Source of the DNA: a virus
Lineage: Duplodnaviria; Caudoviricetes
DNA: 64,000 nucleotides
Virus record (IMG/VR): IMGVR_UViG_3300030333_001969
Location: 1,761-65,760 of that record
Reading direction: 5' to 3' (one strand)
Positions 3,608-63,540 of the stretch are shown here, piece after piece (within the stretch, counting starts at the first letter, position 1; every line of letters starts with the position of its first letter). The notes beneath the pieces are model-generated. The model made no database searches. It saw nothing but the letters and a program-made list of their open reading frames with translations, and was not told the DNA's origin. Made by a program: the position numbers and the translations under genes.

Positions 3608-3963
3608 TAGACGACCTCCATCCTAAAGTTGAAACTAATAGTCTCGTCTGCCCCTATGGGGCCAATGCTATTAAATGTAACGCGGCTTAACATATCACCA
3701 CCAGTCTGTGCATTAAAAATACCTAATTCAGAAATCTTATTACTACCTAATTCTGCACCTGTAAAATCTACTGAGTAAATTAATATATTAGAGACTAAAG
3801 TGGGTGTTGCTGATTTTCTTTGTGCTAATACACTATTATCCAATTCTGTCTGTGAAGCAGAAGAAGAATCTCTACCATCTCCTACGTCTATATATGTGAA
3901 TGCATTTACTGTTTCACCTTTAATCATTTTGCCTAAAGCAACTCTTCCCGCGTCTATTATCAT
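3607..3963 (-). CDS. Small baseplate / fibre-anchoring protein (probable start MIIDAG at 3963)
   Basis: G-R...YIDVGDG...SELGIFNA..GGDMLSR pattern resembles tail-fibre-attachment proteins. ATG overlaps the upstream stop. Lies between tail tip and fibre. Confidence 0.55.
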   Translation of the reverse strand: MIIDAGRVALGKMIKGETVNAFTYIDVGDGRDSSSASQTELDNSVLAQRKSATPTLVSNILIYSVDFTGAELGSNKISELGIFNAQTGGDMLSRVTFNSIGPIGADETISFNFRMEVV

Positions 3964-6900: not shown

Positions 6901-9900
6901 ATATCTCCTGCTGATAAAGATACATTGCCGCTTAATGTTAGCCAACCACTATTTATACTACCAAAGTTGTCATAGTTTACTGTTAAATTATGATAAAGCA
7001 CTCTACTTCTCGGCCACTTTAAATGAGAAATAGTTTCTAATGCATTTGTCTTTGGTAATGATTCATAGTCTACAGGATTGAAATGCCAATCAAATGTTGC
7101 TTCTACTAACCTCATAACACCAAATCTTTTCATACTAGATGGACTAATAGAAGCAGATTTAATTGTCATGTTATCATAATCTATGTCTCTTTGTTCCATT
7201 ATATTTGAATCACCTGTATATTTTTCATGAGAAACAGAATCTCCCTTATTTCCGTCTTCTTCTAACATTAATCCAAAAGAAGTAAATTCATGAGAATCTG
7301 CTGCAAAAGCAATGTTATTGTGTCTTAATTTAGAATCTATGAACATATCTCCTAATCCCAAAATATCATATGTTTTTGTGCGATAATCAATATTTTCTAG
7401 TTCTGTCCAATTACCTGCATATGAACCGCAATTAGCCGGATTGCTTGAATCATATTCTGTTATCCATTCTGTTGGGGCTTTTCTAACAGAAGAACCACCA
7501 GTTAACCCCATATGAGAACCAGTCCATATATTAGACTCTCTAAGTGGTTTTAGTGAATGTGTTAAATCGCCCATTTCTGCGTTTGTTCCTCCACCAAAAG
7601 CGGTGCTTGCAGTTATTGCTTTAATTGCCCCTGATTCATCTATTTTATATGCAGAACAGTATCCATGAATGTTCTGTTTGTTCTTATTATTATTATAAAC
7701 GCTGGTATGTGTTTCATTCACAGTTCCTTTTTTAAATTTATTTAGTCCGGTGTATCTATATATTGTATCACCAAAGTAATAATTAGAATCTAATTCTGAA
7801 GATAGTCTGTGCAAGAACCCACCCGCAGGTAAATTAGTGTTTACTAAATAAATGCCCGCCATGCCTGTAGTTCCAGCACTACCTAATAATGTATCACTAC
7901 TATTTGTTTCTATACTTCCTAGCACTAATGGGAAAGTGGGTGCTAGACTTATAACAGAGTTAGCCTCGTCCTTTGTATTCATCGAAACAACATTGTAAGG
8001 AGAGTATCCTGATGTTGTTTGCATCGGTTTTAAACTAACACCTGCTTCTGTTTCATGTGCAAGTTTAAATGCAAAAGAAGAATCTTTTCCTCTTTCTATT
8101 GCCTTAATACTATTTATGTCATATCCTAAACTTTCATCTTCTGAATAACTACCTGTGGCTGAACTATATATTAAGTCTGTCTTTGTATTTGATGCCCCGT
8201 TATATAAATTTTTAATACCTGAGTTAAAAGATATTCCATTGTTTCCTAAATGTGATAGTTCTGTTGGGTGTGCAGATGCTTGAACATTCGCCCCTGCTGC
8301 TTTAAGTGCAGATAGATATGTTGAAGTTTTACCTAATCTTACAAATTTAAGTTGTTTATTTCCACTAGTTGGATTAGTTTTATTGTTATGAGTGAATACT
8401 ATTACAGTAGTGCCACTATTATCAGTTGCAGTAGATACCTCTCCCATAAATCTATAGTCACTACCTCCAGCATAATGGAATACTAAGTCATATTTATTCA
8501 AAGCCTGTAATACATCAGAAGTGTCTGTTATAGTAACTCCATTAGTTTGAATTGAAACAAGATTATATTGTCCGTCTAGTGGGTCATTAAAATCTAACAT
8601 AGGGGGCAATGAAGAATATACCATATCAGAAGTTCTATTTAAGTTTTTATTTACAGAATTATTTAATAGTGTTGATATGTTATCTCTTCCACTAACTGTA
8701 TATATCATATTACCATGTTCATTTTTAGTAGAAATATCTTCAACAGTTCCTTGAAATACTGTGTCTTCTATTGAGTAGTTTCCTTCCATATAATATAAGA
8801 AAGAAATATTATTGGAAGGGACGTAAAACTTTTTATTAGGGTTTTGTAGTTTTATATATTTGTTAACTGCGTCACCATAGTCTATTAATACATTATGCCC
8901 ATAGAATTGTTTATTCAAGAAAACTAATTTATTATTATATAAGGCGGTGTTTTCTTTACTTATGGTTTTACCATTAATTGTTAGTCTAGCAAGATTATTA
9001 GAACTATAGACTCCTTCGGTATCTATTGGAATAGAACCAGTTAATCCTCCATTCCATGCCCTTACAAATATTTTTTTCTTTGATATGTTAGGTAATGTTC
9101 CTACTGCTTCCCATGTATTTTTAGTAGGTAGTTTCTTTTTATCTACTGTTATTTGTTGGGTTTTTAAATCAGTCAAGGGACTTGCAATTGCTGATATTCT
9201 ATAATAAGTATTTTCTAACCTTACAATGTCTCCTGTTGATAAAAATGAATCGTTTCTAGCATCAAACCCTTCTTCTATTTGTTGTAAAATAATATTTTGT
9301 CCAGAAGTTGTGTCTGTTGATGCAGTATATGGCAACTCATGTTCAGATAAACTTCCTCTATGTAATGAAGTAGATATTTTTAAATCTGCATCTTCTTTCA
9401 TTTTAAGATGTTTAACACCTGTTTCATCTATAGAAGTAACAGTAGCAAATTGACTTATCCTGTTCTGTGGATTATTTACATTTGTAGGAGAAATTATGTT
9501 TGTTACGCCATTGTTTCTATCCTTGCTGTCTTTAAAATATAAATACTTTCTTGGCCCTGATAAATCTCCATGAATTAATTTATAGGTTGTAGTAGGACTA
9601 TAACTGGCGTGTGCGCTTGTTCTATCAGAAGCATTCCTAGAGAAATTTCTAAAGCAATTAACCCATTCAGATGGATTAGGAGTATATGTAGAATTTGTAT
9701 CTTTATCTGTTGGTGCATCTAAAATATCAGTAGTAACTAAGTTATCTACTAATACACCGTGTTGATTTTTACTACCTAAATCAATAATAGTTGCACCATA
9801 CTTTCTTTCTGTTTTAAATACTGCACTAGTAATAGTTCTACCATAATAAATATATTCAGCAGTTCCTTGAGAATGAGTAAGATTAGTTCTCATATTATCT

Positions 9901-10943
9901 AAAACTATAGTATTGTTTGAATTGTCATGACTCGCAATAACTCCTGCATGAAGATAATTGCTTCCATCTAATATCCAAACACTTTGCCCATAATCAGAAG
10001 TGGCAAAATCATAGTCTCCTGTATAGTCTGTTATAGTTAACGTTTTATTTGCCGTCCAATCAGTATCGGTTCCAGCAGAATTATATGCTTTTGTATTGGT
10101 AGCAAACTTAGTCCAATCTTTAAACCATCTACAAGTAGTTAAAAGATATTTAGTATCGTAATCTAGTTGGTTTTCTATATCTAACCTGTCATTATAGAAA
10201 TACCATGTAGGTAAAGAAACACTACAGAAACCATCATATTTGTCAAGAGTAGTATTAACAGCAGTATCTCCTCTTAAACCATAAGATACGGCTACTATGT
10301 TTGTATTAGTTACTGCTGGCCCTTTGTAAATTTCAAAGTTTGTGCCTTCAGGTATAGTAGTTGGATATTTGGGGCTAAACTCAAACCCGTCACCATACTC
10401 GTCATAACTTATGAGTTTATTTATTTTGGCAAAATGAGGTCTAATTGTTGGGGTAGTGTCATCAGATATTTCTGGATTTATTAAAACGAAATAATCATAA
10501 TTTTCTAAATCTAATCCTGATTCTGGTGCAGACGAACCACCTACCTTTTGTCCGGCAGTTGTTTGTTTAGCATCATAGCATCTAATTTTATGCGATAATG
10601 TATTCTGTTTATTAGTAGCATAATTAGCCAATGTATTAGGATTACTAGAAGGCATTATTCTATTTACTATTCTATCAGTTGCATGATTAGAAATATCGGG
10701 TTCAGTAGTGGCTCCAACATCAGTCGGTGCTTTTCTAATTTCAAAGAAATTAGCAGAACTTCCTTGATATTTTGAACCTAAAGAATCTATCATAGGGTTC
10801 TTTAATGTAGGATTAACTGAAACACTAGTAAACGCTACATGATTTCCTGCTGTCCACCTAGTTGCCCAAAGGTGGTTAAGACTTTCTGAACTGGACACGC
10901 CAGCATTTAATGGATAAACATAGTTAACTGTCATCTTCATCAA
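3960..10943 (-). CDS. Very large tail tip / baseplate hub protein (2327 aa)
   Basis: Size, position, beta-rich composition. C-terminal ATRVVVIG...DPNITS..EAR...PGDRVT...F.V.EI resembles tail hub proteins. Confidence 0.6.
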   Translation of the reverse strand: MMKMTVNYVYPLNAGVSSSESLNHLWATRWTAGNHVAFTSVSVNPTLKNPMIDSLGSKYQGSSANFFEIRKAPTDVGATTEPDISNHATDRIVNRIMPSSNPNTLANYATNKQNTLSHKIRCYDAKQTTAGQKVGGSSAPESGLDLENYDYFVLINPEISDDTTPTIRPHFAKINKLISYDEYGDGFEFSPKYPTTIPEGTNFEIYKGPAVTNTNIVAVSYGLRGDTAVNTTLDKYDGFCSVSLPTWYFYNDRLDIENQLDYDTKYLLTTCRWFKDWTKFATNTKAYNSAGTDTDWTANKTLTITDYTGDYDFATSDYGQSVWILDGSNYLHAGVIASHDNSNNTIVLDNMRTNLTHSQGTAEYIYYGRTITSAVFKTERKYGATIIDLGSKNQHGVLVDNLVTTDILDAPTDKDTNSTYTPNPSEWVNCFRNFSRNASDRTSAHASYSPTTTYKLIHGDLSGPRKYLYFKDSKDRNNGVTNIISPTNVNNPQNRISQFATVTSIDETGVKHLKMKEDADLKISTSLHRGSLSEHELPYTASTDTTSGQNIILQQIEEGFDARNDSFLSTGDIVRLENTYYRISAIASPLTDLKTQQITVDKKKLPTKNTWEAVGTLPNISKKKIFVRAWNGGLTGSIPIDTEGVYSSNNLARLTINGKTISKENTALYNNKLVFLNKQFYGHNVLIDYGDAVNKYIKLQNPNKKFYVPSNNISFLYYMEGNYSIEDTVFQGTVEDISTKNEHGNMIYTVSGRDNISTLLNNSVNKNLNRTSDMVYSSLPPMLDFNDPLDGQYNLVSIQTNGVTITDTSDVLQALNKYDLVFHYAGGSDYRFMGEVSTATDNSGTTVIVFTHNNKTNPTSGNKQLKFVRLGKTSTYLSALKAAGANVQASAHPTELSHLGNNGISFNSGIKNLYNGASNTKTDLIYSSATGSYSEDESLGYDINSIKAIERGKDSSFAFKLAHETEAGVSLKPMQTTSGYSPYNVVSMNTKDEANSVISLAPTFPLVLGSIETNSSDTLLGSAGTTGMAGIYLVNTNLPAGGFLHRLSSELDSNYYFGDTIYRYTGLNKFKKGTVNETHTSVYNNNKNKQNIHGYCSAYKIDESGAIKAITASTAFGGGTNAEMGDLTHSLKPLRESNIWTGSHMGLTGGSSVRKAPTEWITEYDSSNPANCGSYAGNWTELENIDYRTKTYDILGLGDMFIDSKLRHNNIAFAADSHEFTSFGLMLEEDGNKGDSVSHEKYTGDSNIMEQRDIDYDNMTIKSASISPSSMKRFGVMRLVEATFDWHFNPVDYESLPKTNALETISHLKWPRSRVLYHNLTVNYDNFGSINSGWLTLSGNVSLSAGDIIYRGKDGTALAVAHKTITNDSSLTVHNTDTTKDLKMLSYDDETDANGDTIYIVRAKLFNTLAPPEGKWGLDEVGNNGLYMPNMYMSVPMVYRDYLRHRLLVGVNSSTNKLNGHDLWIPLIGECIDGVAGTNYNADDNRGQISGFHQAKDWTGNSSETYYHPSRIVNAITRQTFGSNSDGTQYKTHNNTHLYTSCNVLFKDMKKVTKQKDVNKAFTRPTSAVIDIDAGCINTWSNSLGTYISTSGAWDEIDQHSRVLRINQKPPDGQEMTYLGTKTRSHFLGEDSVRSDSSNYDSRSWKHTENDWGLKKKGDVFQAQALFKPKIDFDSDTLNATSFSITLDENCINSWIDYVPNLKGYYLVSDKLVGTNLTLPDKDAFDGTTTTNRLKGEPVYIGKIIHHGVTDSSTYAVHTIKLDTTLNTANHGKTFRLMRISETTFKDTPDYFDLNKMFDTGLKYDYLTQNYITGDEELTDSVVGFGSSADTYTTSAATNDDLIYEEGLFAMYLLLDVDSIIDGKPDRRTVAHVRATPPFNSNTFTGGEFYITDGDTGEVKDLSIESSTTNVRITYDGELNGKGIVSFGEVFNITTHVKPKMRKAQRAYIGTTFNVGTDAEKAMEDILEENNINVDTSEKGLVYTTNIVSQNTTGTTITLENNAINVSAGDDIYNQDGKFIGEVASTSTNTITLAELDSGGADVAYKPVANDEITVYNRKPLIVNSRFTEQDVYGAINFLANKKGLEYQFVQNSPGEMRIKDAYDYDSKRKFDISYKSGTVLEIEKNENMFDKATRVVVIGDSVKAEAEIPVTKGKTKTVKVIDPNITSVSEARIKAEKTLTAHKQKAKKIQIKMDRTGYEMMKPGDRVTLTFETHDIKNEEFTVFEIDNVMSNVTTVTVGTFNKTIAERLSELGVEQKTGFGTLFTKNAGETIKIHYEMEDVLLKETSLKYQVSTPGGTLSGWNTTIGHISTIGSGTDTVTTTEIKL

Positions 10944-28743: not shown

Positions 28744-31266
28744 TTACGCAACTTGCATGGTTAACTTTTTATGCCTGTCTTCAGTAATATCCCATATTCC
28801 TTCATCTTTGTCTTTATCTAACATCTTTTGTTTGATTCCTGTCCAAACAACCCATGTATCTTGTTCTTTAACAGGAACCACTCTAAAGTGTAATCTAGTT
28901 TCAAACTTATCCCCATTTATTTTATATTCGTGATAACCATGCCTTTGAACACCTAACTCAATTTCTCCAGAATCTAACAATTTATCTCTTGTTGTCTTTG
29001 TAGAAACTTGTGCAGGAAACTTACCAGACTTGCCAAACAGATTATAAATATCTTCAGCATCTTCAATATCAATTGTCCACGCCATTTCTTTATCGGGCGT
29101 TCTAATAATCATTTCTAAGTTATCATCACTACCATGATATAATAAGAACTTACCCTTCTTTGGAGTCTTTTCTGCTTTAATAAGTTTATCTTTATTTGCA
29201 GTATATTTATCTTTAGTTACCTTGATAAAATCATCATAATCATTCATCCAGTTAACCATTCTTTTGATGTCTCCTGTCCATAAATCTTCAACTAACTTAG
29301 GTATCTTCTCTTTACAGAAATTAAATATTTCATTTATATGTATTCCTTTTTCTTCTGTATCTATTTCTTGTAAGTATGCTTTAATTGCTACTCTAGCATC
29401 CCCAGACTTTGCCTTCATTAACTCTTCAATTTCATGCTTCCACATATCCATGTCGGCTAAAGCATTCTTTTCCATTAGAGAGTCTCCACTAAAACCATAA
29501 ACAGTAAAGCCTTCAAAGTCAGATTTCATTATAATATCTGCTTCACCGTGAACACCATCAGTTATTACAAACTTTGTTAATGCGTCTTCAACTTCATACT
29601 TTAATGATTTCCTGCCTTCTTTAGATAATAGGTCTAATGTAATTAGTTTCTCTGGTGCTTCTACTTCTGGTATTTCAATCACTTTAGCAGTATACAGTTT
29701 ATACCCACCATTGTTCTTTCTAACTTCATCAACCTTAACCCTTACAATATCTCCAACATCTACCTTTTCTTTAGTATTCAATGCTTTACCAACTGCTAGA
29801 TATTTAAGGCCATCTAATTCTGTTCCACCATGTTCTCTTGCTTCTTCTCCGCTAAGTGGCCCTGCTCCTAAAGTATAAGAATTAAGGTTAGACTTCGTAG
29901 ATTTCTTATCTAATACAATTAAATCTAAATCTACAAATTTCTTTAATTTAATCCACTTGGGGTTTTTCTTACTTCCTTTGTAGTAAGTAGATTCTATGTC
30001 TTTAATAACAACTCCTTCTGATGTTGGTAATTCCATAATATCTTTAGAATACTTTTCTATTTCTGCTAATGAATCTGCTATCCTAGTATTCTTTTTATTT
30101 GGGAAAGACAATTCATCAGAAGAATGCTGTGCTAACTGATAAAATAGAATATTTATTCTTTCTCTTAATGGGGTATCAGTTACATTCTTTCCTTCGTGAT
30201 GTAATATATCAAATACCCTAGCCTTTAACTTTGCTTCTGGATATTTTCCTTTGAATAGATGTGCAATAGTATCTGCACGATGTAATGGTTCGTCTTTATC
30301 ATATAATATTATTTCAGCATCAAAGATGCTATCACCAAACCTCTTTTGTTCTAGTTTATCAACAATGTCTTTACATTTGGAAGTAATATCTTTTTCATTA
30401 TATGAATAAATTTTAACCTTGTCTTTTATTTTATGTAGTTGAACTCTAATGCCATCATATTTTTCTTGAACTACCCATTCTCCACTAAATCCTTTTAAGT
30501 CTTTAATATCATTTACTTCAAATATTCTATACATGGGTTTGTTTGGAATTACAAAATCTGTTTCTTCTTTTTCTTTTTCAGACTTTTCTTTTTTCTTTTC
30601 TTTCTTTAATCTGATTGCTACTAACTCTTCCCAATCTTCTTCTGTATTGTCCACTAAGAAAACTTTCTTTAATAATTCCAATGCTGGCTTAAACTTAGGT
30701 TTAACCTTAGAAGTATCCTTATCATCTCCATAGTGTTCTATAATGTAAATAGGTATATCATCTAACCTAAGGTCTAACCCCATAGCCCCTTCAGAAATGT
30801 TGCCTATGTTTATACCATGTTTTTCCCAAGCAGCAGCAGATATACTGTGTGCGTGTGTGCGTAAAGCATAGTGTATGAACATAGCATATATAGAGGGTTC
30901 AGACACAAACGTTTCTATAACGTTGTCACCCAATTGTTTAGCAAAGGGGTCATTAACTTCTTCAGAATTATAACGCAATCTTTTAATCTGAGCATACAAT
31001 TCTCTTGCTTGACTAGATTCTGCATCAAGGGCATTCTTATCGAAAACAGTTTCTTCATCTAAATATCTTTTCATTTCATTAGTAAAACTACTAAGACCAT
31101 CAAAATCATCTCTTATCTTCTTAACAGACTTTCTCCATTCTTTACCGTATTCATCAGGGTCTTCTCTCGCAGATAGATATTTGTATCTTACATCTTCATA
31201 AAAGTCAAGGACACGCTTCGCCAGCCCTGTATTCTTTTTGCGAAAGAAGACCCCAGATTGTGGCAA
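28744..31266 (-). CDS. lig: ATP-dependent DNA ligase with N- and C-terminal extensions
   Basis: Motif I EKYDGIR, III FDAEI, IIIa VFDILH, IV EGVVIKD, V KWIKLK, followed by an OB-fold region. Confidence 0.9.
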   Translation of the reverse strand: MPQSGVFFRKKNTGLAKRVLDFYEDVRYKYLSAREDPDEYGKEWRKSVKKIRDDFDGLSSFTNEMKRYLDEETVFDKNALDAESSQARELYAQIKRLRYNSEEVNDPFAKQLGDNVIETFVSEPSIYAMFIHYALRTHAHSISAAAWEKHGINIGNISEGAMGLDLRLDDIPIYIIEHYGDDKDTSKVKPKFKPALELLKKVFLVDNTEEDWEELVAIRLKKEKKKEKSEKEKEETDFVIPNKPMYRIFEVNDIKDLKGFSGEWVVQEKYDGIRVQLHKIKDKVKIYSYNEKDITSKCKDIVDKLEQKRFGDSIFDAEIILYDKDEPLHRADTIAHLFKGKYPEAKLKARVFDILHHEGKNVTDTPLRERINILFYQLAQHSSDELSFPNKKNTRIADSLAEIEKYSKDIMELPTSEGVVIKDIESTYYKGSKKNPKWIKLKKFVDLDLIVLDKKSTKSNLNSYTLGAGPLSGEEAREHGGTELDGLKYLAVGKALNTKEKVDVGDIVRVKVDEVRKNNGGYKLYTAKVIEIPEVEAPEKLITLDLLSKEGRKSLKYEVEDALTKFVITDGVHGEADIIMKSDFEGFTVYGFSGDSLMEKNALADMDMWKHEIEELMKAKSGDARVAIKAYLQEIDTEEKGIHINEIFNFCKEKIPKLVEDLWTGDIKRMVNWMNDYDDFIKVTKDKYTANKDKLIKAEKTPKKGKFLLYHGSDDNLEMIIRTPDKEMAWTIDIEDAEDIYNLFGKSGKFPAQVSTKTTRDKLLDSGEIELGVQRHGYHEYKINGDKFETRLHFRVVPVKEQDTWVVWTGIKQKMLDKDKDEGIWDITEDRHKKLTMQVA

Positions 31267-56611: not shown

Positions 56612-57011
56612 AATATTCCTCCTTGTGTCGCCCGGTTTAACTTATTTAACCATTAAAACTGAAAATTTGGCCCGTCATTTATTTGCCACTTGCGATTTTT
56701 ATTTTAATGTTTTTATCCTATTCCCAGAATAAAAATAGTTTATTGTTTAAATTGAATGATAAAAAGGTATTAATCTCCTGTATCCCTTTACGCGACCCGC
56801 GATTTTTTAATAGTTAAATAATCACCTTTGAGTTTAGTGCGTTCACTCTATATGACCCATGTGCGCCTACTATTTAGATATATGACTTGACACAATTAAC
56901 ATTTTAAGCCTGTTTTAACTAAACAAATCATTAAAAGATTAAAGAAAAAAAATCGACCCAAAGCATATGGTCATGTAAAATACATAGACCCGTCAGGAAA
57001 TTCTTCCAACA

Positions 57012-57436
57012 ACGATAGTCGTATTCAGCGTTCAATGGAGCATAGTAGTGATAACACTTACTATTAGTCTATTTCTCTGAATACGTCATCGTATGTTTCC
57101 ATCCTTCCATATGGTAAGGTTATAGGACATATAGTATCTGTTAACTTGCAGGGACGGGTAGAAAACTGTCTGGTAAATAGGAACTATACATAAGTATAAG
57201 CCTAAGCGTGTTTCGTAGTTTTACCAGCGTTGTTTTCTACTTAGTGCCCTTGCAAGTTAACAGCACGGTGTCCATAAACCACCCGATTAATCTGGTATCC
57301 AACGTTTCACTTAAGTAAATGCTTTGTAGTTCGTTTGCATCTCCAATAACGACAAAAACAGGGGCACTTAGGTTCTCGCTTAGGCGACCCCTTAATATGC
57401 CGTTATTGTTTATCATCCTCACTAACAAGCATTTAC
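57012..57436. repeat. Three long imperfect hairpins of the CCTAAG family (leftmost degenerate)
   Basis: For example CTGTTAACTTGCA (57138-57150) / TGCAAGTTAACAG (57251-57263) enclosing GCCTAAGCG (57200); CACTTAGG at 57365. Confidence 0.8.
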
Positions 57437-57656
57437 ATTTACAACCATATGGTAGCCTGTGCTTTGCTAACAGAATGCCCGATAACGGGACTTACTTCAT
57501 TGTTACGATTTTACAGCAATTACCCATTCTTACTCGTAAATCGCCTAATTCCATTCCGCAGGTTTCACATATCTCTATCATCATTTTTACATCCATTAAA
57601 CCAGCACCAATAGAAAGAGGAATTGCAATCATCACATGATAAAGGGAGAGTATTTC

Positions 57657-57914
57657 TCATTCTCCCTCCTCCACAACATATAGACCAAGACTTATCATAT
57701 CATCAAGCCATTGGTCTTGTTCCTTCAATGGCATTTGATGATGTATTATATCACCAATAGATTGTATATAGTGTCTAAGAAGGTTACAATTCTTTTGCCC
57801 TTTCAACACTTCACAGAACTCTTGATGGGCGTGTAATAAATCCCAATCAATATCTCCTTCATCTTCAACTAATGGGGTTTCATACCCACATTCACAGAAA
57901 CCACTATGTTTCAT
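57657..57914 (-). CDS. Small Cys/His-containing protein
   Basis: CECG...HQEFC; third gene of a palindrome-bounded cassette. Confidence 0.6.
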   Translation of the reverse strand: MKHSGFCECGYETPLVEDEGDIDWDLLHAHQEFCEVLKGQKNCNLLRHYIQSIGDIIHHQMPLKEQDQWLDDMISLGLYVVEEGE

Positions 57915-58630
57915 TCTTCATCCCCCATAACAAGGGCAGTTGTTTCTGGTGAGCATTGGTAGGTTGCTTCACTAATTATCTTAGTCTCACAATCAACAGT
58001 ATGTGTTAATTCGCAAGCACTTAGTTCTGAAAGAACTGCTTCTACTGCCTCGCGTATTCTCATCATCTCAGCCAATGGCACTTGAACAACCTTTTCTTCT
58101 ACTGCCTTTCTATTTGAAATCTTATCAACTTCATAGATAATAGTAAAGATTAGCGAATAGGTGTATCCATAAGTTTCTAATTTAGCCGTCAAAAACACAT
58201 TATCATCATATTCAATCTTTGCTTTACCATACCAATCTTGTTCACCATTAATGTCACCATCGAATATACCAAGATGTGGCCCTTGAACTCTCATCCAAGT
58301 GTCCATTCTCTTTGTTGTTTCAATTGAACCTATTGTGCCATTAATACCGTAGTTCTTCAAACCCTCCAAAGCCAATTGTGCTTGACTATGGTAATCTAAC
58401 TCCATAACTACTTGACCGTGACTATCGGTTATTGCATAAGTAGTGGTTGTATCTTCCTTCTCTTGGAAACCATATTTACTAGGCTGGCTTTCTGGATTAG
58501 TATAGTTATAACTGCTCGTTTGGGCTATGCCTCTATTATACAGCATTCCTTGCACTTTTTGAGCATGGTTAGGAACATCGTCCATATCCGTGTCAAAGTA
58601 TATCTCCATCTTTCTCTCATATATCGTCAT
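57911..58630 (-). CDS. Hypothetical acidic protein (239 aa)
   Basis: AGGAG RBS; coupled to neighbours. Confidence 0.7.
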   Translation of the reverse strand: MTIYERKMEIYFDTDMDDVPNHAQKVQGMLYNRGIAQTSSYNYTNPESQPSKYGFQEKEDTTTTYAITDSHGQVVMELDYHSQAQLALEGLKNYGINGTIGSIETTKRMDTWMRVQGPHLGIFDGDINGEQDWYGKAKIEYDDNVFLTAKLETYGYTYSLIFTIIYEVDKISNRKAVEEKVVQVPLAEMMRIREAVEAVLSELSACELTHTVDCETKIISEATYQCSPETTALVMGDEE

Positions 58631-58825
58631 TTACTCATCTCCTATTGCTTCAACGTAATCGGACAATGCTGATTGCATATCAGCCATTACTTCCTTTAGG
58701 TTGTCTCCAGATACTCGTAATTTGCTAATACATAGAACAAGGGCAGACCCTGATTTCATATGTTTAACTTCTAACACGTATTTTGGCTCAGTTATTGGTA
58801 TTGTCTCATTATTCTCATTAATCAT
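58631..58825 (-). CDS. Small hypothetical protein (probable start MINENNE)
   Basis: Downstream of the TATA-like element at about 58852-58860. Confidence 0.55.
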   Translation of the reverse strand: MINENNETIPITEPKYVLEVKHMKSGSALVLCISKLRVSGDNLKEVMADMQSALSDYVEAIGDE

Positions 58826-58851
58826 GTGAATCATTCTTATCTTATTCTTAG

Positions 58852-58893
58852 AATATATCAGGTAAGTGTTAGCAAAGCACACTACCATATGGT
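58852..58893 (-). promoter_or_regulatory. Palindrome + CTTTG + TATA-like promoter
   Basis: Minus strand ACCATATGGT..GCTTTG...ACCTGATATATTC; same layout at 59551-59594 and 60008-60051 (minus) and 61536-61573 (plus). Confidence 0.6.
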
Positions 58894-58939
58894 TTGCTTT
58901 GCGTTAAACCGGAGAGGTGGAGAGGGGCGCAAAACCCAC

Positions 58940-59488
58940 CTATTCCTCTTCATCGCCTCCGATGAAGGATACCACAGGATAACCGTTCTCATCATAAGAA
59001 CCGTCCCAATGGTATTTCTTGGTCATATCTCCGTTTGCGTGTGCATTGTAAGCGGAATTGAGGAATAGTCTCTCTTTCTTCACGCCATCTGTTGCAAACA
59101 CGGTAGCGTCATCGTCTAGGGTGTTGTAAAGCACACCACCGGACTTTCCGTGTGTTCTAGCGGTTGCGTAAACACATGGATAAACGGTATCACGAAGTGC
59201 GGTAAAAAGTGTCTCATTCAAGTAAAGGTCGAATGAGGACTTGGTTGCGGTATCCATTAGAGACTTGCGCCCCTGTCCAATGGGCGAATTTGCCACATCG
59301 GTGAATACACCTACAATAGAGTTCCAATATCTCTTTCGGGTGCTTGGGTTAGCATCACCGAGAGCGAACATTGAACGCACAATCATTGCCAAATCGCTTT
59401 GGTCTGGATTAACTGCGAACCACTCTTCTAGGTCGGATTTCTTGGTTTCCCACTTGCTGTCATCTATTTCATTGCTCATCTTAATCAT
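58940..59488 (-). CDS. Hypothetical protein, paralog of 61641-62150
   Basis: Shares GD.N.STR, NSI, R.HGKS.G and WDGS with the plus-strand ORF at 61641. Confidence 0.75.
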   Translation of the reverse strand: MIKMSNEIDDSKWETKKSDLEEWFAVNPDQSDLAMIVRSMFALGDANPSTRKRYWNSIVGVFTDVANSPIGQGRKSLMDTATKSSFDLYLNETLFTALRDTVYPCVYATARTHGKSGGVLYNTLDDDATVFATDGVKKERLFLNSAYNAHANGDMTKKYHWDGSYDENGYPVVSFIGGDEEE

Positions 59489-59609
59489 CTCCGAAAAGGT
59501 AAGATAGGTTTGCGCCCCTAAAATTCCTCTCCGTTCTTATGATTCATTGTGAATATATGAGGTGTGTTTAACACAAAGTACCACACCATATGGTTTTACT
59601 TTGTGTAAA

Positions 59610-59995
59610 AAACCAGATAGGAGAGAATGCTTGGATTTACACTTAGGCTAATCTACCGTTATTCTAAGTCCAAGTCTCATATCTCTCCATTGGGGAGTGT
59701 GAGTGGGTTTTGTATTGTGCTTTCCTAAGGCACTCTCAGACCCGAAACTGAGCAAATGAAGGTGGATGCTGGACTCTCTTTCGATTACCAGCAAAGACGC
59801 ATGGGCGTTAGTTCTACATATCTTGAGTATACAGTCCTAACCCGCGCTTACTCATTCTTACCCCGCTAAGGGCGTTGTCCTGCCTTTCCTTTCTAAGAAC
59901 GACTCGGTGTCCCGCTAAGAACCAAGAATGATGCTTTACACCCTAACGATGGTGTTATTCAGCCAATCCGTGCCAACCGCGCCGTTGGCATTCTT
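59610..59995 (-). ncRNA. Candidate structured non-coding RNA (about 380 nt)
   Basis: Same promoter layout as neighbouring genes but no ORF of 60 aa or more; GC-richer; ends AGAATGC/GCATTCT are complementary; contains GCCTAAGTG; followed by a T-run. Confidence 0.4.
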
Positions 59996-60060
59996 ATGTT
60001 TAAGGGTGAATATATCAGGTGCAATTGACACAAAGTATCACACCATATGGTAAGTTATTA

Positions 60061-61296
60061 GGTCATAGTGGATTGTAAGGCGGGTTTCTCCCTGTGGTAG
60101 CCACTATCCAACAAAGAGGCTAATTCCTAAGAATAGAGCCTAAGCGTACTCAAAGTTGGTGTGGCAGCCACGGTGGAGAAACTCCGCCTTAGAAGCCTAC
60201 TGACCATAAACACTTATTCCCCATTTAATGGGGAGAAACATTACATTAACATGAAATAATACAGATTTCGGTTGCTTAATACGCTAAGGCCGATTCAGGG
60301 CCACTTAGGTTCGGCTATGGCCTTTCCCTGAATTTAGCCTTACCGTATTAACCGCCTCAACTGTATATATTTCATTATACTACCATATGGTTACTTAGTC
60401 TAGGAGTTAAGCATAACTCATGCAGCATAATAGGCTCCTAAGAGTCTAAGCCTAAGTGTTGATGCTGCTTGCGTTAGGCTTAACTCCAAGCAAGATAATC
60501 CCATATCGGGTTCTTTTGATTTGAGGTCTGTTTCAAACAGTTCAGATGCCAATCATAAACTTTTGCCAATGCAGTACCGCTTAGGCTGGGTCTTAAGACC
60601 CCCTTTAGGCTAGGAACGGATGTTCCTACCCGTCAAAAGATTATGTTAGCATCATCACAACTCACCAGACCTTTATTTTATAATTAGCAAACCATATGGT
60701 TGTTTAGGTGATGCTAGGTTTAGTGTCTTCCTGTAGTCACGGATTCAATTCAAAAAATTGAAGCCTAAGTGTATCTGTTACTGCGGGAGACACTAAACCA
60801 ATGCCACCATAATAACCAGATTTAGAATCCGGTTCAAACAATAAAGGAGTCTAACATAAAGGTTTGGCCTTTTCCAGATACAGCAAAATGACTCTTCGCT
60901 TAGGCTTCAAATTGAGATTTGTCCGTCATTTATCTGTATCCTCCTTGGCCTGCTAAACTTGCAATAGTTGTTTGCAAGTTAACAAACCATTAAGAAGACT
61001 CCTTTAACTTACCATATGGTTTGATAAAGTGGTCTGCGTTTAGACGCGAATAAAGGGTGCGTAATCTTTAGTTTTGTATTAAAACAAGAGTTCACCTAAG
61101 TGAAAATCTAAATGTCTCGCCAGTTTTAATTCATAACTAAAGAGTACGTCACGCTTTAGTTCGCGTCTAAACGCGTGACCCATATCATTCCCGATAAATA
61201 GGGTATATATTCCACAAGCGATTGCGAAGGAGATAAACCTATGAACACTTAGGCTCTTGTTATGACAAGCCCTATGTTCATCTCCTCCACTATCGC
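60061..61296. repeat. Eight long imperfect hairpins in alternating orientation with apical RCCTAAGYG motif
   Basis: Stems include 60403-60412/60478-60487, 60717-60728/60788-60799, 60842-60852/60996-61006 and 61036-61050/61160-61174. Motif at 60138+, 60302-, 60450+, 60578-, 60763+, 60897-, 61094+, 61246-. Confidence 0.85.
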
Positions 61297-61640
61297 AGTT
61301 CCATTATTACCATATGGTAGGGCATAAAATATTAATTGAAGCATTAATCGCTTCTGTTAAACGAAAAGTTTCGGAAGCCGTCCCTTGTGAATCGAAAAAG
61401 GGTTCACCCGTGACCCCTCCGGCATTTTTCTTATTTCTCGTTTTTCTAAAACGTGAGAATAACGTTAACCAACCTCGTAGAAAACGGCTTGTTTTTCCTT
61501 CTCGACTCTTCAGACCCCTGAAAAACGCTATCATTACCATATGGTTCTGCTTTGCACGGAACCTCTTATATATCCGATTACTCTCCCAAGAATGCCCCCG
61601 AAACTTGGGCACGAAAGAAAATACACATAGGTGATAAAAG

Positions 61641-62150
61641 ATGGAAGATATTGAGTGGGATTCAGTAAAGATAAAAGTAAGCACTATGCTTGAAGGTAAC
61701 GCAGAAGTTGGAGACATTCCAGAAGACGTTGTTACTCTTGCACAGATGCTAATAACGACAGGCGACAATAACGCTTCTACGCGTGATTCGCTGACTAACA
61801 GCATTAAGGATATGCTAAAGCCATACGCTGGTTATCCTTGGAAGAGAGGGAATCAGGGCATTCTACCTGCTGCGGCTCGCGCAGTTGTAGATTCTGCTAC
61901 TGATAACATCCGAGAGGCAGCAAGAGAGTTCTTTAACTCTACTTCGCAGTATTCTCAGCCCCTTCTCCGAAAGCACGGTAAGAGCAAGGGTTCCCCTGTT
62001 TACGCTGATGCTGACGAGTATGCAAACGAACTTGCTTCAAAGGCACGAAAGGCTGCAACACAACTGTTCAAGGACGGTGAGTGGGACGGCTCTCTATCGG
62101 GTCTTGCTGCTTGTGCGTCTTATGACGACATAACCACGGAGGATGAGTAA
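61641..62150 (+). CDS. Hypothetical protein, paralog of 58940-59488
   Basis: AGGTGA RBS, upstream TTATATAT box, shared motifs RKHGKSKG and WDGS. Confidence 0.8.
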   Translation: MEDIEWDSVKIKVSTMLEGNAEVGDIPEDVVTLAQMLITTGDNNASTRDSLTNSIKDMLKPYAGYPWKRGNQGILPAAARAVVDSATDNIREAAREFFNSTSQYSQPLLRKHGKSKGSPVYADADEYANELASKARKAATQLFKDGEWDGSLSGLAACASYDDITTEDE

Positions 62151-62190
62151 TTCTTCCTTCGTTAACCTAAGTTTCGGGGTGCAATCTACC

Positions 62191-62246
62191 GAGGGGGAAT
62201 AGGGTCTTTAATGGCCTTATTCCCTCTCAACTTTCTTCAGGTTTTT
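62191..62246 (+). terminator. Hairpin plus T-rich tract after the 61641 gene
   Basis: GAGGGGGAATAGGG...CCTTATTCCCTCTC followed by T-rich sequence. Confidence 0.5.
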
Positions 62247-62479
62247 GCTGGAAGCAAAGCCCAGTTAAAACCATATGGTAGTGTTTGGCTTCTTAACGGA
62301 AGGGGGCCGCGAGGGGTTCCGCACCGTTTATATATTCTCACGGAAGGGTATGAGTGCTTTCGACATTGGCAATTTATTGACGCAGAAAGAACGTAATCCG
62401 ACTAATGCAGTATATCAATAGTCTGATATTTATGGTGTAATAAATTACCGCCGTTAACAGGCACATGAATTAATAGTTA

Positions 62480-62865
62480 GAGATGCTTGCTTATATGATA
62501 TTCATATGCATTATGTATATACATATCTATATGCCATATCCTATATGATATGATAAGGCTCCCAATTTCTACAACTCAGCCCCACAAAAGTGGGCATGAT
62601 ATGTCATCTTTCTATCTTTCTAATAGGGGTAGAATAATGAAGTGGGCATGATGTGTAAGGAAATGGGTGATAAGTAGATATATAATATATTATTATATTA
62701 TTATTATTATTATACTCTCTTACTACTCCTTCCTTCCTTCCTTCCTTCTTGGCAGGGGGGTGGAAAAATGAGAAAAATAGAAAGATGCTAGAAGTAGACA
62801 TATTATGTTATCTTTATGGGAATTTGTGATAATATTATATTTCTATCGAAAGTAGAAAGATGGGA
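62480..62865. other. AT-rich, repeat-rich intergenic region; candidate replication origin
   Basis: (TAT)n tract at about 62685-62713, (TTCC)n at about 62727-62748, AAGTGGGCATGAT twice, several TAGAAAGA/AAGTAGA copies in both orientations. Confidence 0.35.
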
Positions 62866-62901
62866 GAAAGATGTCGAAGGCATTGTTTAACAAGTGATTA
62901 T

Positions 62902-63540
62902 ATGAGAACAGTTTGGACAAAAGCAGATGTAAAGAAGTTAGTTCGTTTATGGAAGAAAGGAACTAAGATTAAGGAAATTCACAAGGAGTTTCCCAATAGA
63001 ACCGCAGGTTCAGTAACAAATAAGATTTATGCGTTACAAAGAAGCGGTGAATTAGTGAGCCGTCATAAAGATGGTTCAAACCCACCAAAGAAAACTAAGT
63101 CTACAAAGACAGGAAAGCCCCTTAGTGAAGATAAGTATCCCCCTTGGAAAAAGACACCTTATGATTCACACGAAGATATTATTCCTAAAGATTGGATTAA
63201 AAATCCGTGGGGAGACAAGTATCCTGTAAAGAAAGTGCAAGATAATTTGGAGAAGATGGCAAAGGCTTCCAAGAGTTGGGGAGAATCTGGAGATGCAATC
63301 GTGTCTATGATAGAAGAAATCAAGGAATTTTTGCTGTCCAAGAATACACAGTATGGAGATAGTGCGCTAAATCCAATACGAGTGTTCTCAAAAGCAGATA
63401 AATCTGAGCAGTTGAAGGTCAGAATAGACGATAAGTTAAATAGACTGATGCAAGGAAACGCATCACTAGAGTCTGATGAAGACGTTGTAAAGGATTTGAT
63501 AGGTTATTTAATTCTATTATTAATTCATTTACGAGAATAA
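62902..63540 (+). CDS. Myb/GcrA-like HTH fused to a DUF1599 (nucleotide-modification-associated, MazG-like) domain
   Basis: WT..D...L..LWKKG....EI...FPNRT..SV..K HTH; C-terminal KN..YGDS...VRIDDKLNRL....EDVVKDLIGY. Confidence 0.65.
   Translation: MRTVWTKADVKKLVRLWKKGTKIKEIHKEFPNRTAGSVTNKIYALQRSGELVSRHKDGSNPPKKTKSTKTGKPLSEDKYPPWKKTPYDSHEDIIPKDWIKNPWGDKYPVKKVQDNLEKMAKASKSWGESGDAIVSMIEEIKEFLLSKNTQYGDSALNPIRVFSKADKSEQLKVRIDDKLNRLMQGNASLESDEDVVKDLIGYLILLLIHLRE

Follow-up and report, generated by a model that had tools for sequence, protein, structure and literature searches.

Long hairpins with a covarying apex between copies of an early-promoter palindrome in a magrovirus-like archaeal tailed virus

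The window analysed here, a 64,000-nucleotide stretch of viral DNA, belongs to a marine, magrovirus-like archaeal tailed virus, which fits the affiliation proposed in the initial annotation, and its early, cassette-built part carries an array of long, rapidly evolving hairpins whose stems run freely while their tips keep a small covarying module. We tentatively read these hairpins as strand-specific small structured RNAs of a new family, with a putative protein-binding tip, and regard this as a real possibility a little short of an even chance. None of the long hairpins matched a family in Rfam.

Results

The ten-letter palindrome ACCATATGGT, here called P1, occurs in 10 exact copies in the window against 0.05 expected, a number reached by none of 100 shuffles, and the exact copies are confined to 57444-62279. 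The pattern CCATATGG gains one further site at 57107, reading TCCATATGGT (57106-57115, one mismatch), and a degenerate copy with one mismatch, AGCATATGGT, lies at 56962-56971. The recurrence described initially, with spacings of 338, 340, 309, 320 and 298, was reproduced, the copies bounding hairpins including the exact sites at 60382-60391, 60691-60700, 61011-61020 and 61309-61318. P1 also adjoins the TATA-like promoters of early genes, where it is extended to CAAAG-N5-6-P1-N5-6-CTTTG. Thus the exact copy at 57444-57453 has a CTTTG half-site on its right; the copies at 58884-58893 and 59585-59594 have CAAAG/CTTTG flanks and lie upstream of leftward TATA-like boxes (58842-58849, followed by genes, and 59556-59563, respectively); the copy at 61536-61545 is followed by CTTTG and the TATA-like box (61566-61573) of gene 61641-62150; and the last P1 in the window, 62270-62279, precedes a TATA-like box near 62327. 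The copy at 60042-60051 faces both ways, on its left as putative operator of a manA-like cassette (TATA-like box 60008-60015) and on its right abutting a hairpin. In the 11 arrays counted, P1 occurs 11-23 times per genome upstream of the homologue of protein P0005 (for which no structural match was found), down to 54% amino-acid identity, and at least four copies were present in 24 of 34 further viral loci; the P1-bearing group comprises about 30 or more marine viral contigs. P1 is common to every early gene cassette and conserved far outside the clade with window-type hairpins, and the idea that it is a specific anchor of the hairpins had to be abandoned.

Neighbouring P1 cassettes were detected in four metatranscriptome runs from two studies, with RNA contigs ending 21-31 nt downstream of TATA-like boxes. 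Contigs of gene 58940-59488 begin at 59524-59532, and those of the highly expressed gene 61641-62150 run from 61594 to 62135-62179, beginning exactly at the 5' arm and stopping near the 3' arm; the gene cassettes here also have paired ends. Likewise highly expressed (RNA contig depth 634) is the manA-like structured RNA at 59759-59990 on the minus strand, which has its own P1 and TATA-like box and, at 46.9 bits, falls short of the gathering score for Rfam RF01745 (55.2). Cassette L (61319-61535, plus strand) is a candidate separate small RNA without the apical motif. It has an AT-rich TATA-like stretch right after P1, two T5 runs and a local hairpin, and it is conserved in three relatives (L038, L039 and L040).

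Folding of five P1-bounded intervals (57116-57443, 60052-60381, 60392-60690, 60701-61010 and 61021-61308) gave in each case the two opposed hairpins that had been described, here two convergent long hairpins of 86-166 nt, together with a small central GC-clamped hairpin, P2. In the first interval, hairpin A (57118-57280, plus strand; z -6.7) carries the apex TATAC-ATAA-GTATA and then AGCCTAAGCG, hairpin B (57315-57436, minus; z -6.0) carries TCGC-CTAA-GCGA and then AACCTAAGTG, and P2 between them is CCCGATTAATCTGG (57282-57295). The second contains hairpin D (60052-60215, plus; z -7.5), with ATTC-CTAA-GAAT, AG and then AGCCTAAGCG, the P2 CCCCATTTAATGGGG (60219-60233) and hairpin E (60250-60377, minus; z -7.6), with GGC-CATA-GCC and then GAACCTAAGTG. 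In the third, hairpin F (60403-60484, plus) shows TAGGCTC-CTAA-GAGTCTA followed by AGCCTAAGTG, P2 is CCCATATCGGG (60497-60507), and hairpin G (60524-60672, minus; z -4.4) has a tandem apex made of AGGAAC-ATCC-GTTCCT, AGCCTAAAGG, GGGTC-TTAA-GACCC and AGCCTAAGCG. The fourth holds hairpin H (60701-60808, plus; z -7.8; TCAATT-CAAAA-AATTGA, then AGCCTAAGTG), P2 AACCAGATTTAGAATCCGGTT (60814-60834) and hairpin I (60842-61006, minus; z -6.6; CAAAT-CTCA-ATTTG, A, then AGCCTAAGCG), and the fifth holds hairpin J (61021-61187, plus; z -9.0; TTCAC-CTAA-GTGAA, then AATCTAAATG), P2 CCCGATAAATAGGG (61190-61203) and hairpin K (61214-61299, minus; z -5.7; CTTGT-CATA-ACAAG, then AGCCTAAGTG). The leftward gene operon likewise finishes with a P2-like hairpin (57478-57489) at its 3' end.

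The initial annotation had counted about 11 conserved hairpins reading away from the palindromes on an array spanning 56962-61318, and ten of them stand, with that orientation in all five intervals. The eleventh, hairpin C (59612-59690, minus), lies at the 3' end of the manA-like cassette, where the transcribed strand carries AGCCTAAGTG and a T6 run comes after the hairpin. This hairpin lacks the mini-hairpin and is oriented towards the P1 at 59585; its opposite strand is the more stable (-24.1 vs -22.8), and its motif is absent from the L015 orthologue, both of which speak against an RNA reading. Nor is the array continuous, being interrupted by four protein genes (57454-59584) and by the ncRNA cassette (59595-60041), and the P1 copies at 61536 and 62270 lie beyond its proposed end. 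The interval 56971-57105 holds a hairpin (57008-57095) that lacks the apical motif and is kept in relative L040 (interval 1892-2035).

As for the proposed apical motif, RCCTAAGYG is indeed enriched, with 13 copies against 1.06 expected in the window, 12 of them within 57200-61254, but it does not cover every unit, as J has AATCTAAATG and the 57008-57095 hairpin has none. Bare CCTAAG is not clearly enriched window-wide (42 vs 28 expected, 2 of 100 shuffles reaching 42). The common apex is better described as a mini-hairpin of 4-7 bp, its loop often YTAA, directly 5' of A-R-Y-CTAA-R-Y-G, the latter forming a covarying 2-bp stem. Of the 32 half-intervals in the window, L015 and L018 (the latter two being relatives), 31 contain the pattern A[AG][CT]CT[AG]A[AG][CT]G; its positions 2:9 and 3:8 were paired in 60/60 cells, 21 of them with double changes, compared with 81.7% in shuffles, none of 500 of which reached that value. 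Of 35 distinct instances of the motif, 30 had the mini-hairpin directly next to it (background 21%), and in 11 seed sequences, picked for their common geometry, 7/7 pairs covaried. ARYCTAARYG is concentrated inside the array of about 5 kb, which accounts for 10 of its 16 occurrences in G001, a complete genome of 96 kb, and for 11 of 15 in each of G002 and G000. Applied to 569 kb of sequence drawn from 54 sources, a covariance model, R1, gave 36 matches at E<=1. Of these, 34 belong to the arrays of L038, L039, L040, L041 and the window, so the window-type apex is limited to one clade. Related loop cores (CTAAGCG, CTTAGCG and CTTAATG) occur in other clades, and CTTAATG/CATTAAG has complementary flanks in 40 of 47 distinct copies, on 25 different stems.

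Each of the 10 window hairpins was compared with 60 dinucleotide shuffles per strand, and all folded better than these, with z from -4.4 to -9.0 on the motif strand, which runs 5' to 3' away from P1, and from -3.1 to -12.7 on the other. Among the distinct units of the window and two relatives (about 17 non-orthologous families), folding energy was lower on the motif strand in 30 of 30, and G.U pairs numbered 116 on that strand vs 54 on the other, in agreement with the G-T asymmetry noted at the outset. G.T wobbles and strand bias would also suit a folded DNA single strand.

Comparison of orthologous hairpins in related viruses revealed that base and apex are kept and the mid-stem is replaced with full compensation, as exemplified by unit J in L038 and L039. 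Pairs changed on both sides and still paired amounted to 14 of 31 in three orthologues of unit F, 8 of 61 in J and 7 of 38 in E. Divergence is high, a flanking protein being 99% identical in amino acids with DNA only about 82% identical. Cassettes between P1 copies are shuffled and inverted among relatives, and the orthologues of hairpin E in L038 and L039 lie on the opposite side of a gene block. Covariation in the apex and between orthologues thus bears out the family of single-strand-specific folded elements, with conserved apex and free-running stems, that had been suggested. The identities set aside from the start, namely CRISPR, TIGR, attC and REP, also found no support in the tests made here; integrase, Y1 transposase, reverse transcriptase and Nop protein are all lacking.

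Discussion

Recognition by one protein, and the roles suggested at the outset (defence decoys, guide precursors, and nicking, priming or ejection signals), are treated here as conjectures. Several observations weigh against reading the hairpins as RNAs. The main hairpin block (60052-61535) is flanked by divergent gene promoters and lies upstream of both; most window hairpins have no recognisable promoter, since a suitably spaced TATA-like box precedes the hairpin base in only 2 of 10 units (H and K, F being marginal); the CTTTG half-sites typical of gene cassettes are missing at the hairpins; no oligo-T run is found 3' of P2; the loop CTTAATG/CATTAAG of the more distant clade has no consistent strand preference (10 vs 19 units); and no protein was recognised as a binder of the tip, P0005 lacking a structural match and P0001 resembling Cas6 only at a non-significant level. 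The lack of evident promoters would suit hairpins acting as folded single-stranded DNA or extruded cruciforms, with the apex read by a DNA enzyme. Such structures might serve for priming or loading where the DNA is transiently single-stranded, or might promote the recombination that shuffles cassettes at P1, an explanation that we consider unlikely. With unwinding from P1, the motif strand would serve as lagging-strand template, the array sits at a gene-orientation switch near the cumulative GC skew minimum, cassettes are relocated and inverted between relatives, and small hairpins that combine a conserved loop with a free stem resemble the DNA hairpin promoters of phage N4 and plasmid ssi signals. 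However, the most origin-like sequence, AT-rich with simple repeats (62400-62860), is outside the array, and a single origin there would expose hairpins of one strand only; 10-23 origins or priming sites within 5 kb are implausible; many stem bulges and tips of about 30 nt disfavour cruciform extrusion; integrase, resolvase, Y1 HUH enzyme and reverse transcriptase are all missing from the complete relative genome; and transcribed cassettes plainly make use of these P1 sites.

Somewhat less probable still is that the hairpins do nothing beyond providing structure. As stem-loops of PeSL-like regulatory cassettes, remaining between promoters, they would terminate transcripts, insulate units or protect RNA ends, and the apex would be shared through duplication and gene conversion instead of marking a binding site. 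Archaeal termination generally depends on oligo-T and not on hairpins, 86-166 nt far exceeds what an insulator requires, and the apex sequence persists on stems that are no longer recognisably alike, with neutral divergence close to saturation; moreover, its tiny 2-bp stem covaries, and the loop cores with complementary flanks recur in other clades. The restriction of the window-type apex to one clade and the paired ends of the gene cassettes would nonetheless fit, and the region does resemble published PeSL-type regulatory cassette arrays, because P1 behaves as a promoter-associated operator common to every early gene cassette. PeSL cassettes of T4-type phages are reported to consist of an early promoter plus a stem-loop and to mediate modular shuffling (PMC4122927; PMC2839356), which is like the shuffling and inversion seen here, and a similar TATA-plus-inverted-repeat motif is described for the archaeal virus HGTV-1 (PMC3950731). 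We find it very improbable that the hairpins are precursors which a hairpin-specific endoribonuclease of the virus cuts, so that their variable arms become small guide-like or double-stranded RNAs. An apex that stays constant between arms that vary is what such precursors might look like, and a candidate enzyme, P0001 (57911-58630), is encoded inside the array, with two predicted ferredoxin-like halves (pLDDT 69.5, modest) and as best structural neighbour Csf5, a Cas6-family endonuclease (rmsd 4.1, 104 residues aligned), at a non-significant Z of 6.2, which calibration placed in the chance range for this fold class. The two arms of each hairpin are, however, mutually complementary, and stalk length varies about two-fold, which leaves no measuring rule.

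We read P1 as the operator for a DNA-binding factor, placed next to the TATA-like promoter that each early unit has. If the hairpins are small RNAs with a protein-binding tip, as we tentatively favour, they would be made from the strand running away from P1, with P2 as a candidate transcript end. The 5' and 3' ends of each RNA would pair as a long stalk, like those of neighbouring mRNAs, and this stalk might need only to remain paired. The tip, a constant module in which the mini-hairpin is directly followed by A-[R-Y-CUAA-R-Y]-G, could then be what a viral or host protein recognises. With at least 10 copies per genome, these RNAs may early in infection form a multivalent sponge, decoy or scaffold. 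Independently of this, we read the repeated P1 sites as recombination points at which cassettes are shuffled and inverted between related viruses.

Results

The window is the final 64 kb of a linear viral contig that measures 65,760 bp, with completeness estimated at 68%. The ten-letter palindrome ACCATATGGT (P1), for which the initial annotation had asked for a count in the rest of the genome, occurs in the window in 10 exact copies against 0.05 expected, all of them within 57444-62279, with one-mismatch copies at 57106 and 56962. The motif RCCTAAGYG is present in 13 copies against 1.06 expected, and 12 of the 13 fall within 57200-61254; the hexamer CCTAAG is weakly enriched across the window (42 against 28), with an equally high count in 2 of 100 shuffles. 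In five P1-to-P1 intervals of 298-340 bp (57116-57443, 60052-60381, 60392-60690, 60701-61010 and 61021-61308), folding of both strands reproduced the paired hairpins of opposite orientation that had been described between palindromes, in the order long hairpin, P2, and long hairpin on the opposite strand, where P2 denotes a small GC-clamped hairpin midway between the two convergent long ones, in variants of CCCGAT..ATCGGG. The long hairpins are lettered, in the same order, A/B, D/E, F/G, H/I and J/K. The earlier estimate of about 11 conserved hairpins stands for these ten and does not extend to the eleventh, hairpin C (59612-59690, minus strand), which has the motif and is weaker and atypical, and a hairpin without the motif is found within 56971-57105. 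The array is broken up by four small genes on the minus strand (57657-59488) and by a non-coding cassette (59595-60041). Cassette L (61319-61535, plus strand), which is kept in the related contigs L038, L039 and L040, contains two T5 runs and a local hairpin besides an AT-rich box that directly follows P1, and looks like a candidate for a separate small RNA gene with an archaeal-type terminator.

Most of the ten window hairpins measure 86-166 nt, two boundary calls being longer. On the strand bearing the motif (the motif strand) all ten fold better than dinucleotide shuffles, a test that had been named beforehand, with z-scores from -4.4 to -9.0. Strands were compared in 30 distinct hairpins from the window and two relatives, belonging to about 17 non-orthologous families: the motif strand had the lower folding energy in 30 of 30, and G.U pairs numbered 116 on it against 54 on the opposite strand, which bears out the initial remark that wobble positions appear as G-T on the motif strand. 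Hairpin C is the exception, as its opposite strand folds with the lower energy (-24.1 against -22.8). For both hairpins of each of the five double intervals, reading the motif strand 5' to 3' leads from the nearer P1 toward P2.

At the hairpin tip, the broader form of the motif, A[AG][CT]CT[AG]A[AG][CT]G, was found in 31 of 32 half-intervals of the window and of the related loci L015 and L018. Pairing within the tip was assessed in 32 aligned instances (30 distinct) obtained with a search expression that did not impose it. Standard pairs occupy positions 2:9 (GC, AU or GU) and 3:8 (CG or UA) in 60 of 60 cells, compared to 81.7% in shuffles, and 21 cells carry double changes, a result matched by 0 of 500 shuffles, with the reservation that kinship inflates these counts; in the orthologous F set, a tip pair switches from C-G to U-A. 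Because of the pairing at 2:9 and 3:8, the motif can be described as a 2-bp stem with a CUAA loop and invariant A and G flanks. Adjoining it in 30 of 35 distinct instances, against a background of 21% at random array positions, is a mini-hairpin whose stem has 4-7 bp and whose loop, frequently CTAA, TTAA or CAAA, has 3-6 nt; 7 of 7 pairs covary in 11 tip seeds, which were selected for common geometry. A covariance model, whose construction had been suggested at the outset, was built for the tip; run over 569 kb drawn from 54 sources, it gave 36 matches at E<=1. Of these, 34 fall in the arrays of the window and of L038, L039, L040 and L041, one is a genic site at 41743 and one lies in L046; units E, I and C escape the model. 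Motif matches fell inside the array in 10 of 16 cases in the complete 96-kb relative genome G001, and in 11 of 15 in each of the genomes G002 and G000.

Related viral contigs were gathered by a pattern scan and by protein-guided fetches. P0005, the early protein that flanks the array and is encoded at 61641-62150 (plus strand), shows 99% amino-acid identity in L038/L039 where the DNA is about 82% identical, and unconstrained sites should therefore be near saturation. Orthologous hairpins in these relatives retain the foot and the tip, while the mid-stem is substituted on both arms with pairing preserved: compensatory changes affect 14 of 31 predicted pairs in unit F, 8 of 61 in unit J and 7 of 38 in unit E, so that conserved structure in related genomes, also named in advance as a test, was indeed found. 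These data provide strong evidence that selection acts on pairing, with selection on sequence at the foot and tip alone. In more distant relatives (P0005 identity 54-74%) P1 occurs 13-23 times over the 5-6 kb that lie upstream of the P0005 homologue, and most of the P1 intervals are single-unit, of 95-250 bp. Tips in L043 and L045 have the related core CGCTAAGTG/CTTAGCG, and those of L046-L052 a 4-5 bp stem around CTTAATG; in this latter group at least three complementary flanking pairs accompany 40 of 47 distinct in-array copies, on 25 different stems, and no strand preference was seen when looked for. When P2 was sought as a 3' element among 29 units of the single-unit clades, strict criteria placed GC mini-hairpins at the 3' end of two and at the 5' end of six, and about 6-7 units were judged by eye to end in CCYTAAGGG-YTACA-P1. 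A wider scan identified 34 loci with closely spaced P1 pairs, 24 of which have at least four copies.

At gene cassettes, P1 is extended to CAAAG-N5-6-ACCATATGGT-N5-6-CTTTG, and a TATA-like box (ATATATTC or TTATATAT) lies 20-47 nt from it; copies so flanked precede TATA-like boxes at 58884, 59585, 60042, 61536 and 62270. The same arrangement is seen in distant relatives that are devoid of the hairpin motif (L012, L016, L023 and L067). P1 is best read as a candidate operator for a DNA-binding factor at early promoters, not as a hairpin component, and a specific anchoring of the hairpins by the palindrome, as first described, is not supported.

RNA was studied through assembled contigs of four marine metatranscriptome runs (X7, X9, X11 and X16), which represent at most three samples from two studies. 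RNA contigs cover genes, the manA-like RNA discussed below and gene 61641-62150 (four runs). Contig ends lie 21-31 nt downstream of three TATA-like boxes, at 59524-59532, 59977 and 61594, which fits archaeal promoters, a bacterial -10 alternative remaining from contig ends alone. The mRNA of gene 61641-62150 begins at 61594, where a 5' arm has its first base, and reaches 62135-62179, by the complementary 3' arm at 62166-62182; because the mRNA ends coincide with these arms, neighbouring transcripts have paired termini as the hairpins do. Complementary 5' and 3' ends are also a feature of the early mRNA at 58894-59584, as at 61594-62182. No RNA contigs were seen on 57116-57443 or 60052-61535; such libraries usually lose small tightly folded RNAs, and this absence therefore weighs neither way. 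When promoters for single hairpins were sought, a TATA-like box at a workable distance was found in just 2-3 of 10 units, and no oligo-T run was found after the P2 hairpins. A P2-like hairpin also closes a gene operon at 57478-57489, and the main hairpin block lies upstream of two divergent promoters. To the right of the array, 62400-62860 is AT-rich and contains ATAT-type repeats as well as runs of (TTA)n and (CCTT)n; it is near a GC-skew turning point, adjoins gene 62860-63540 with its weak D5-like/HTH PHROG matches, and is a candidate replication origin.

The minus strand at 59759-59990 gave a match to manA RNA (RF01745) that spans the full model (positions 1-192 of 192) yet stays below the gathering score (46.9 bits, with 55.2 required; E 6e-10), and the equivalent cassette matches manA in L040, L043, L046, L047 and L049 at 32-50 bits. 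This RNA has a cassette with a promoter to itself, and nowhere in the region is RNA contig depth greater (634 in X9). manA RNAs have been described from marine metagenomes, T4-like cyanophages and two gamma-proteobacteria (PMC2864571), and were reported to assemble into decamers and a 60-mer cage (2026 preprint 10.64898/2026.07.01.735769); the match, if true, would place a manA-like RNA in an archaeal-virus lineage and outside a 5' UTR. Kissing loops between CUAAG of the hairpin tip and its complement CUUAG, which recurs in the manA-like transcript, were considered and rejected, as the manA loop of L049 fails to track the CUUAAUG loops of its clade.

Units F and G (60365-60701) match L015 and L018 at about 80% identity, across the gene block there, and D/E orthologues are likewise found across the gene block from the window position. 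The window, L040, L043 and L047 carry the non-coding cassette on their minus strand, L046 and L049 carry it on the plus strand, and P1 copies flank it in every case. Because the complete relative genome has no tyrosine or serine recombinase, Y1 transposase, reverse transcriptase or Nop-domain protein, this shuffling looks like recombination at repeated regulatory motifs. Shuffling by such a route has been described for the PeSL cassettes of T4-type phages (PMC4122927), and was proposed in similar form for the haloarchaeal virus HGTV-1, which has a PeSL-like TATA-plus-inverted-repeat motif (PMC3950731). As in those systems, one short motif is repeated upstream of many small early/accessory genes, adjoining promoters and joined with stem-loops, and the cassettes between repeats differ, relocate and invert among close relatives; the palindrome-bounded cassette design is, in this sense, already known. 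Unlike PeSL, however, the window repeat is a 10-bp perfect palindrome whose distance from an archaeal-type TATA-like box varies over 20-47 nt, many cassettes are gene-free and contain only 86-166 nt hairpins in convergent pairs, and these hairpins share a covarying apical module that goes unmentioned in those portions of the PeSL descriptions that were compared (PMC4122927, PMC3950731).

With regard to the identity of the virus, the major capsid protein matched haloarchaeal tailed viruses in 8 of 8 cases (22-24% identity) and the portal protein archaeal viruses in 11 of 11 (best 30% identity, E 3e-61); an ATP-dependent ligase domain is found in ORF 28744-31266, between the portal and capsid genes in the structural module, and the complete relative genome measures 96,167 bp. 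Magroviruses are described as having structural proteins like those of haloarchaeal tailed viruses only, an ATP-dependent ligase in the structural module and a genome of about 100 kb (PMC5434244). Judging from sequence, our virus appears to share these features (capsid, portal, ligase and, in the relative, genome size), and for this reason its host is probably a Marine Group II archaeon. A search for the host by means of the extended operator in 185,579 species genomes returned 21 loci, 20 of them single chance-like sites, and was discarded. The remaining locus, L067, is a 14.7-kb contig in a flavobacterial MAG labelled Altibacter, with seven P1 operators and two P0005 homologues (31% and 27% identity); since these mark a binned viral contig, L067 is no evidence of host, and it is most likely a mis-binned viral contig.

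P0005 is highly expressed and has 44 homologues (cluster representatives) in an unannotated marine-virus family, P0002 (58940-59488, minus strand) being a paralogue with 23% identity. Its predicted model is helical (pLDDT 84.5); no Pfam domain was found in it, and Foldseek against the PDB gave no match below E 1. All relatives that were retrieved by way of P0005 encode its homologue at the margin of their P1 array. P0001 (57911-58630, minus strand), an array-encoded protein of 239 aa, has eight homologues, one with an identical sequence, and its model comprises two ferredoxin-like halves (pLDDT 69.5), the best structural neighbour being the Cas6-family endonuclease Csf5 at a non-significant Z of 6.2. 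Neither Pfam nor PHROGs returned anything for the array genes. All five early proteins end in acidic tails (GDEE, GDEEE, EEGE, GDE and TEDE). Elsewhere, in the structural module, a 2327-aa ORF (3960-10943, minus strand) has DFDSD at residue 1672, a motif of the type found in two-barrel RNA polymerases such as the crAss-like virion enzyme; a virion RNA polymerase was not supported by PDB sequences, PHROGs or the ESM Atlas, in which the nearest clusters are viral hypothetical and tail proteins.

A search of the 64-kb window with Rfam 15 gave no match at the gathering score. At E<=5 in 56800-62400, the sole match over the long motif hairpins was MIR5998 on unit H (19.8 bits against 180, E 0.76), and a mir-2319 match (E 4.5) spans the palindrome at 59585 and barely touches hairpin C, both being at chance level. 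The region had no blastn match among 50,697 phage records, a literature text search for ACCATATGGT, CCATATGGT and GCCTAAGCG found nothing related by title or abstract among the matches listed, and the magrovirus/Poseidoniales literature searched made no mention of palindromes, hairpins, non-coding RNA, promoters or intergenic regions. A tRNA scan of the window found none; its contig stops short of the position at which relatives, about 2.4 kb downstream of the P0005 start, have a tRNA of Leu-UAA type, whose variable arm is long and whose anticodon loop is CUUAAGA (L040 8361-8444, L043 8121-8204 and 8496-8569, L046 8079-8162, L047 8339-8422). Mimicry of this loop by the hairpin tip was rejected, as 5 of 7 loop letters match and there is no proper 7-nt loop.

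Protein families were sought in G000, G001 (100% complete) and G002, and none of the three had a match to tyrosine recombinase PF00589 (control positive in 14 of 14 genomes), Y1 HUH transposase PF01797, reverse transcriptase PF00078 or Nop-domain PF01798 (control positive in four archaeal genomes); there is no serine recombinase in the complete relative genome either. That the elements had not been recognised as CRISPR, TIGR, attC or REP at the outset agrees with every defining feature tested. CRISPR arrays consist of regularly spaced direct repeats, some 23-50 nt long, and unique spacers of about that length; such an array does not fit, the recurring direct repeats being just P1 and a few flanking bases at 298-340 nt spacing, and a 17-nt apex. 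TIGR-Tas arrays are encoded with a Nop-domain Tas protein, and PF01798 is absent; a retron ncRNA was dismissed in the absence of PF00078. REP/BIME elements with RAYT, or IS200/IS605 ends, are disfavoured by the absence of PF01797 and by hairpins of 86-166 nt with a conserved tip, REP being 20-40 nt with a conserved foot. Integron attC sites resemble our hairpins in conserving structure over sequence, in folding from one strand and in separating exchangeable cassettes. Their inverse core sites read RYYYAAC...GTTRRRY and all point the same way, whereas the hairpin feet are variable or GTTAT...ATAAC, of opposite polarity, orientation alternates, and the conserved part is the tip, not the foot; these feet, the alternating strands and the lack of a tyrosine recombinase led us to reject an attC array. 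Lastly, the 11-nt GAAA-tetraloop receptor is CCUAAG/UAUGG, and both halves occur here (in the tip motif and in P1); the Y3:R8 covariation is that of a local 2-bp stem, and the geometry, tip versus foot of a rigid stem, is unsuitable, so this likeness was regarded as a coincidence.

Discussion

Our analysis establishes a paralogous hairpin family in which folding is a property of one strand, the tip is conserved and the stalk has merely to pair, and places this family in a PeSL-like, operator-punctuated cassette array of an archaeal virus. What the hairpins do is a matter of weighing. We tentatively predict that they act as RNA, although we hold this with somewhat less than even confidence, because their strand rule points outward from an operator associated with promoters, the cassettes next to them are transcribed and likewise have ends that pair, the gene operon too finishes in a P2-like hairpin (57478-57489), and in size and covariation the tip resembles RNA hairpins that bind proteins. 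Counted against it are the TATA-like box available for 2-3 of 10 hairpins only, the lack of oligo-T after P2, and a block lying upstream of divergent promoters. The same strand rule would be explained if unwinding started at P1 and the hairpins functioned as folded DNA, which we consider unlikely, in that the most origin-like sequence (62400-62860) is outside the array and no usual DNA enzyme is encoded. It is rather improbable that the hairpins are purely structural, as PeSL-like elements would be, and quite improbable that they are processing precursors served by the weakly Cas6-like P0001.

Within the RNA reading, a more specific scheme is conceivable, if doubtful. Each genome of the magrovirus-like archaeal viruses would produce 10-20 small RNAs presenting an identical two-loop tip on a long, drifting stalk. 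Shuffled through P1, these RNAs would jointly form a multivalent decoy or scaffold, aimed at a single protein early in infection. The tiny two-loop tip, containing UAA, would be held constant while the stalk sequence was free to drift; the target could be a host factor or a highly expressed early protein encoded among the units, and the flanking palindromic operator might let the virus shuffle, invert and exchange units as cassettes. If true, no ncRNA family would have been described before it in viruses of Marine Group II archaea, and its layout would be a new kind of RNA "array".

Several known systems invite comparison. Long imperfect stems flanking a functional RNA are found in the RNase III hairpins of the T7 early region and in rRNA processing stems; the neighbouring window mRNAs, with paired 5' and 3' ends at RNA contig ends, are similar to these, while the window hairpins enclose just a ~30-nt apex and occur on both strands. 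Small hairpins whose stems covary and whose loop is conserved serve as promoters for the virion RNA polymerase of phage N4; the window mini-hairpins are alike in this and also lie in an early region, but they cap long stems and are not upstream of genes. With phage ncRNA islands (clusters of tRNA-like or small stable RNAs; cyanophage manA and wcaG) the array shares a gene-poor structured stretch beside early genes, and one of its cassettes aligns with the full manA model, at a score below the gathering threshold; in contrast to them, the hairpins are without an Rfam family and form at least ten paralogous units on alternating strands, punctuated by palindromes, and the host lineage is probably archaeal. 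The hairpins have no Rfam 15 match and fail the tested features of CRISPR, TIGR-Tas, attC, REP/RAYT and retrons, and there is a fair chance that they represent a new class of structured RNA.

Marine Group II archaea are abundant and uncultured, as are their viruses, and the locus offers, for this lineage, a candidate early operator conserved over dozens of viral contigs, positions of archaeal-type promoters backed by the ends of metatranscriptome contigs, mRNAs whose termini pair, a manA-like RNA in the setting of an archaeal virus, and a large paralogous hairpin family with unusually clean covariation. Should the hairpins be RNAs, they would make up a new class of structured RNA whose conserved recognition module is very small and lends itself to a search for the protein partner; as DNA elements, they would bear on replication priming or recombination in archaeal viruses. 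In either case, RNA or DNA, the palindrome-bounded cassettes are an instance of PeSL-like modular evolution in an archaeal virus lineage.
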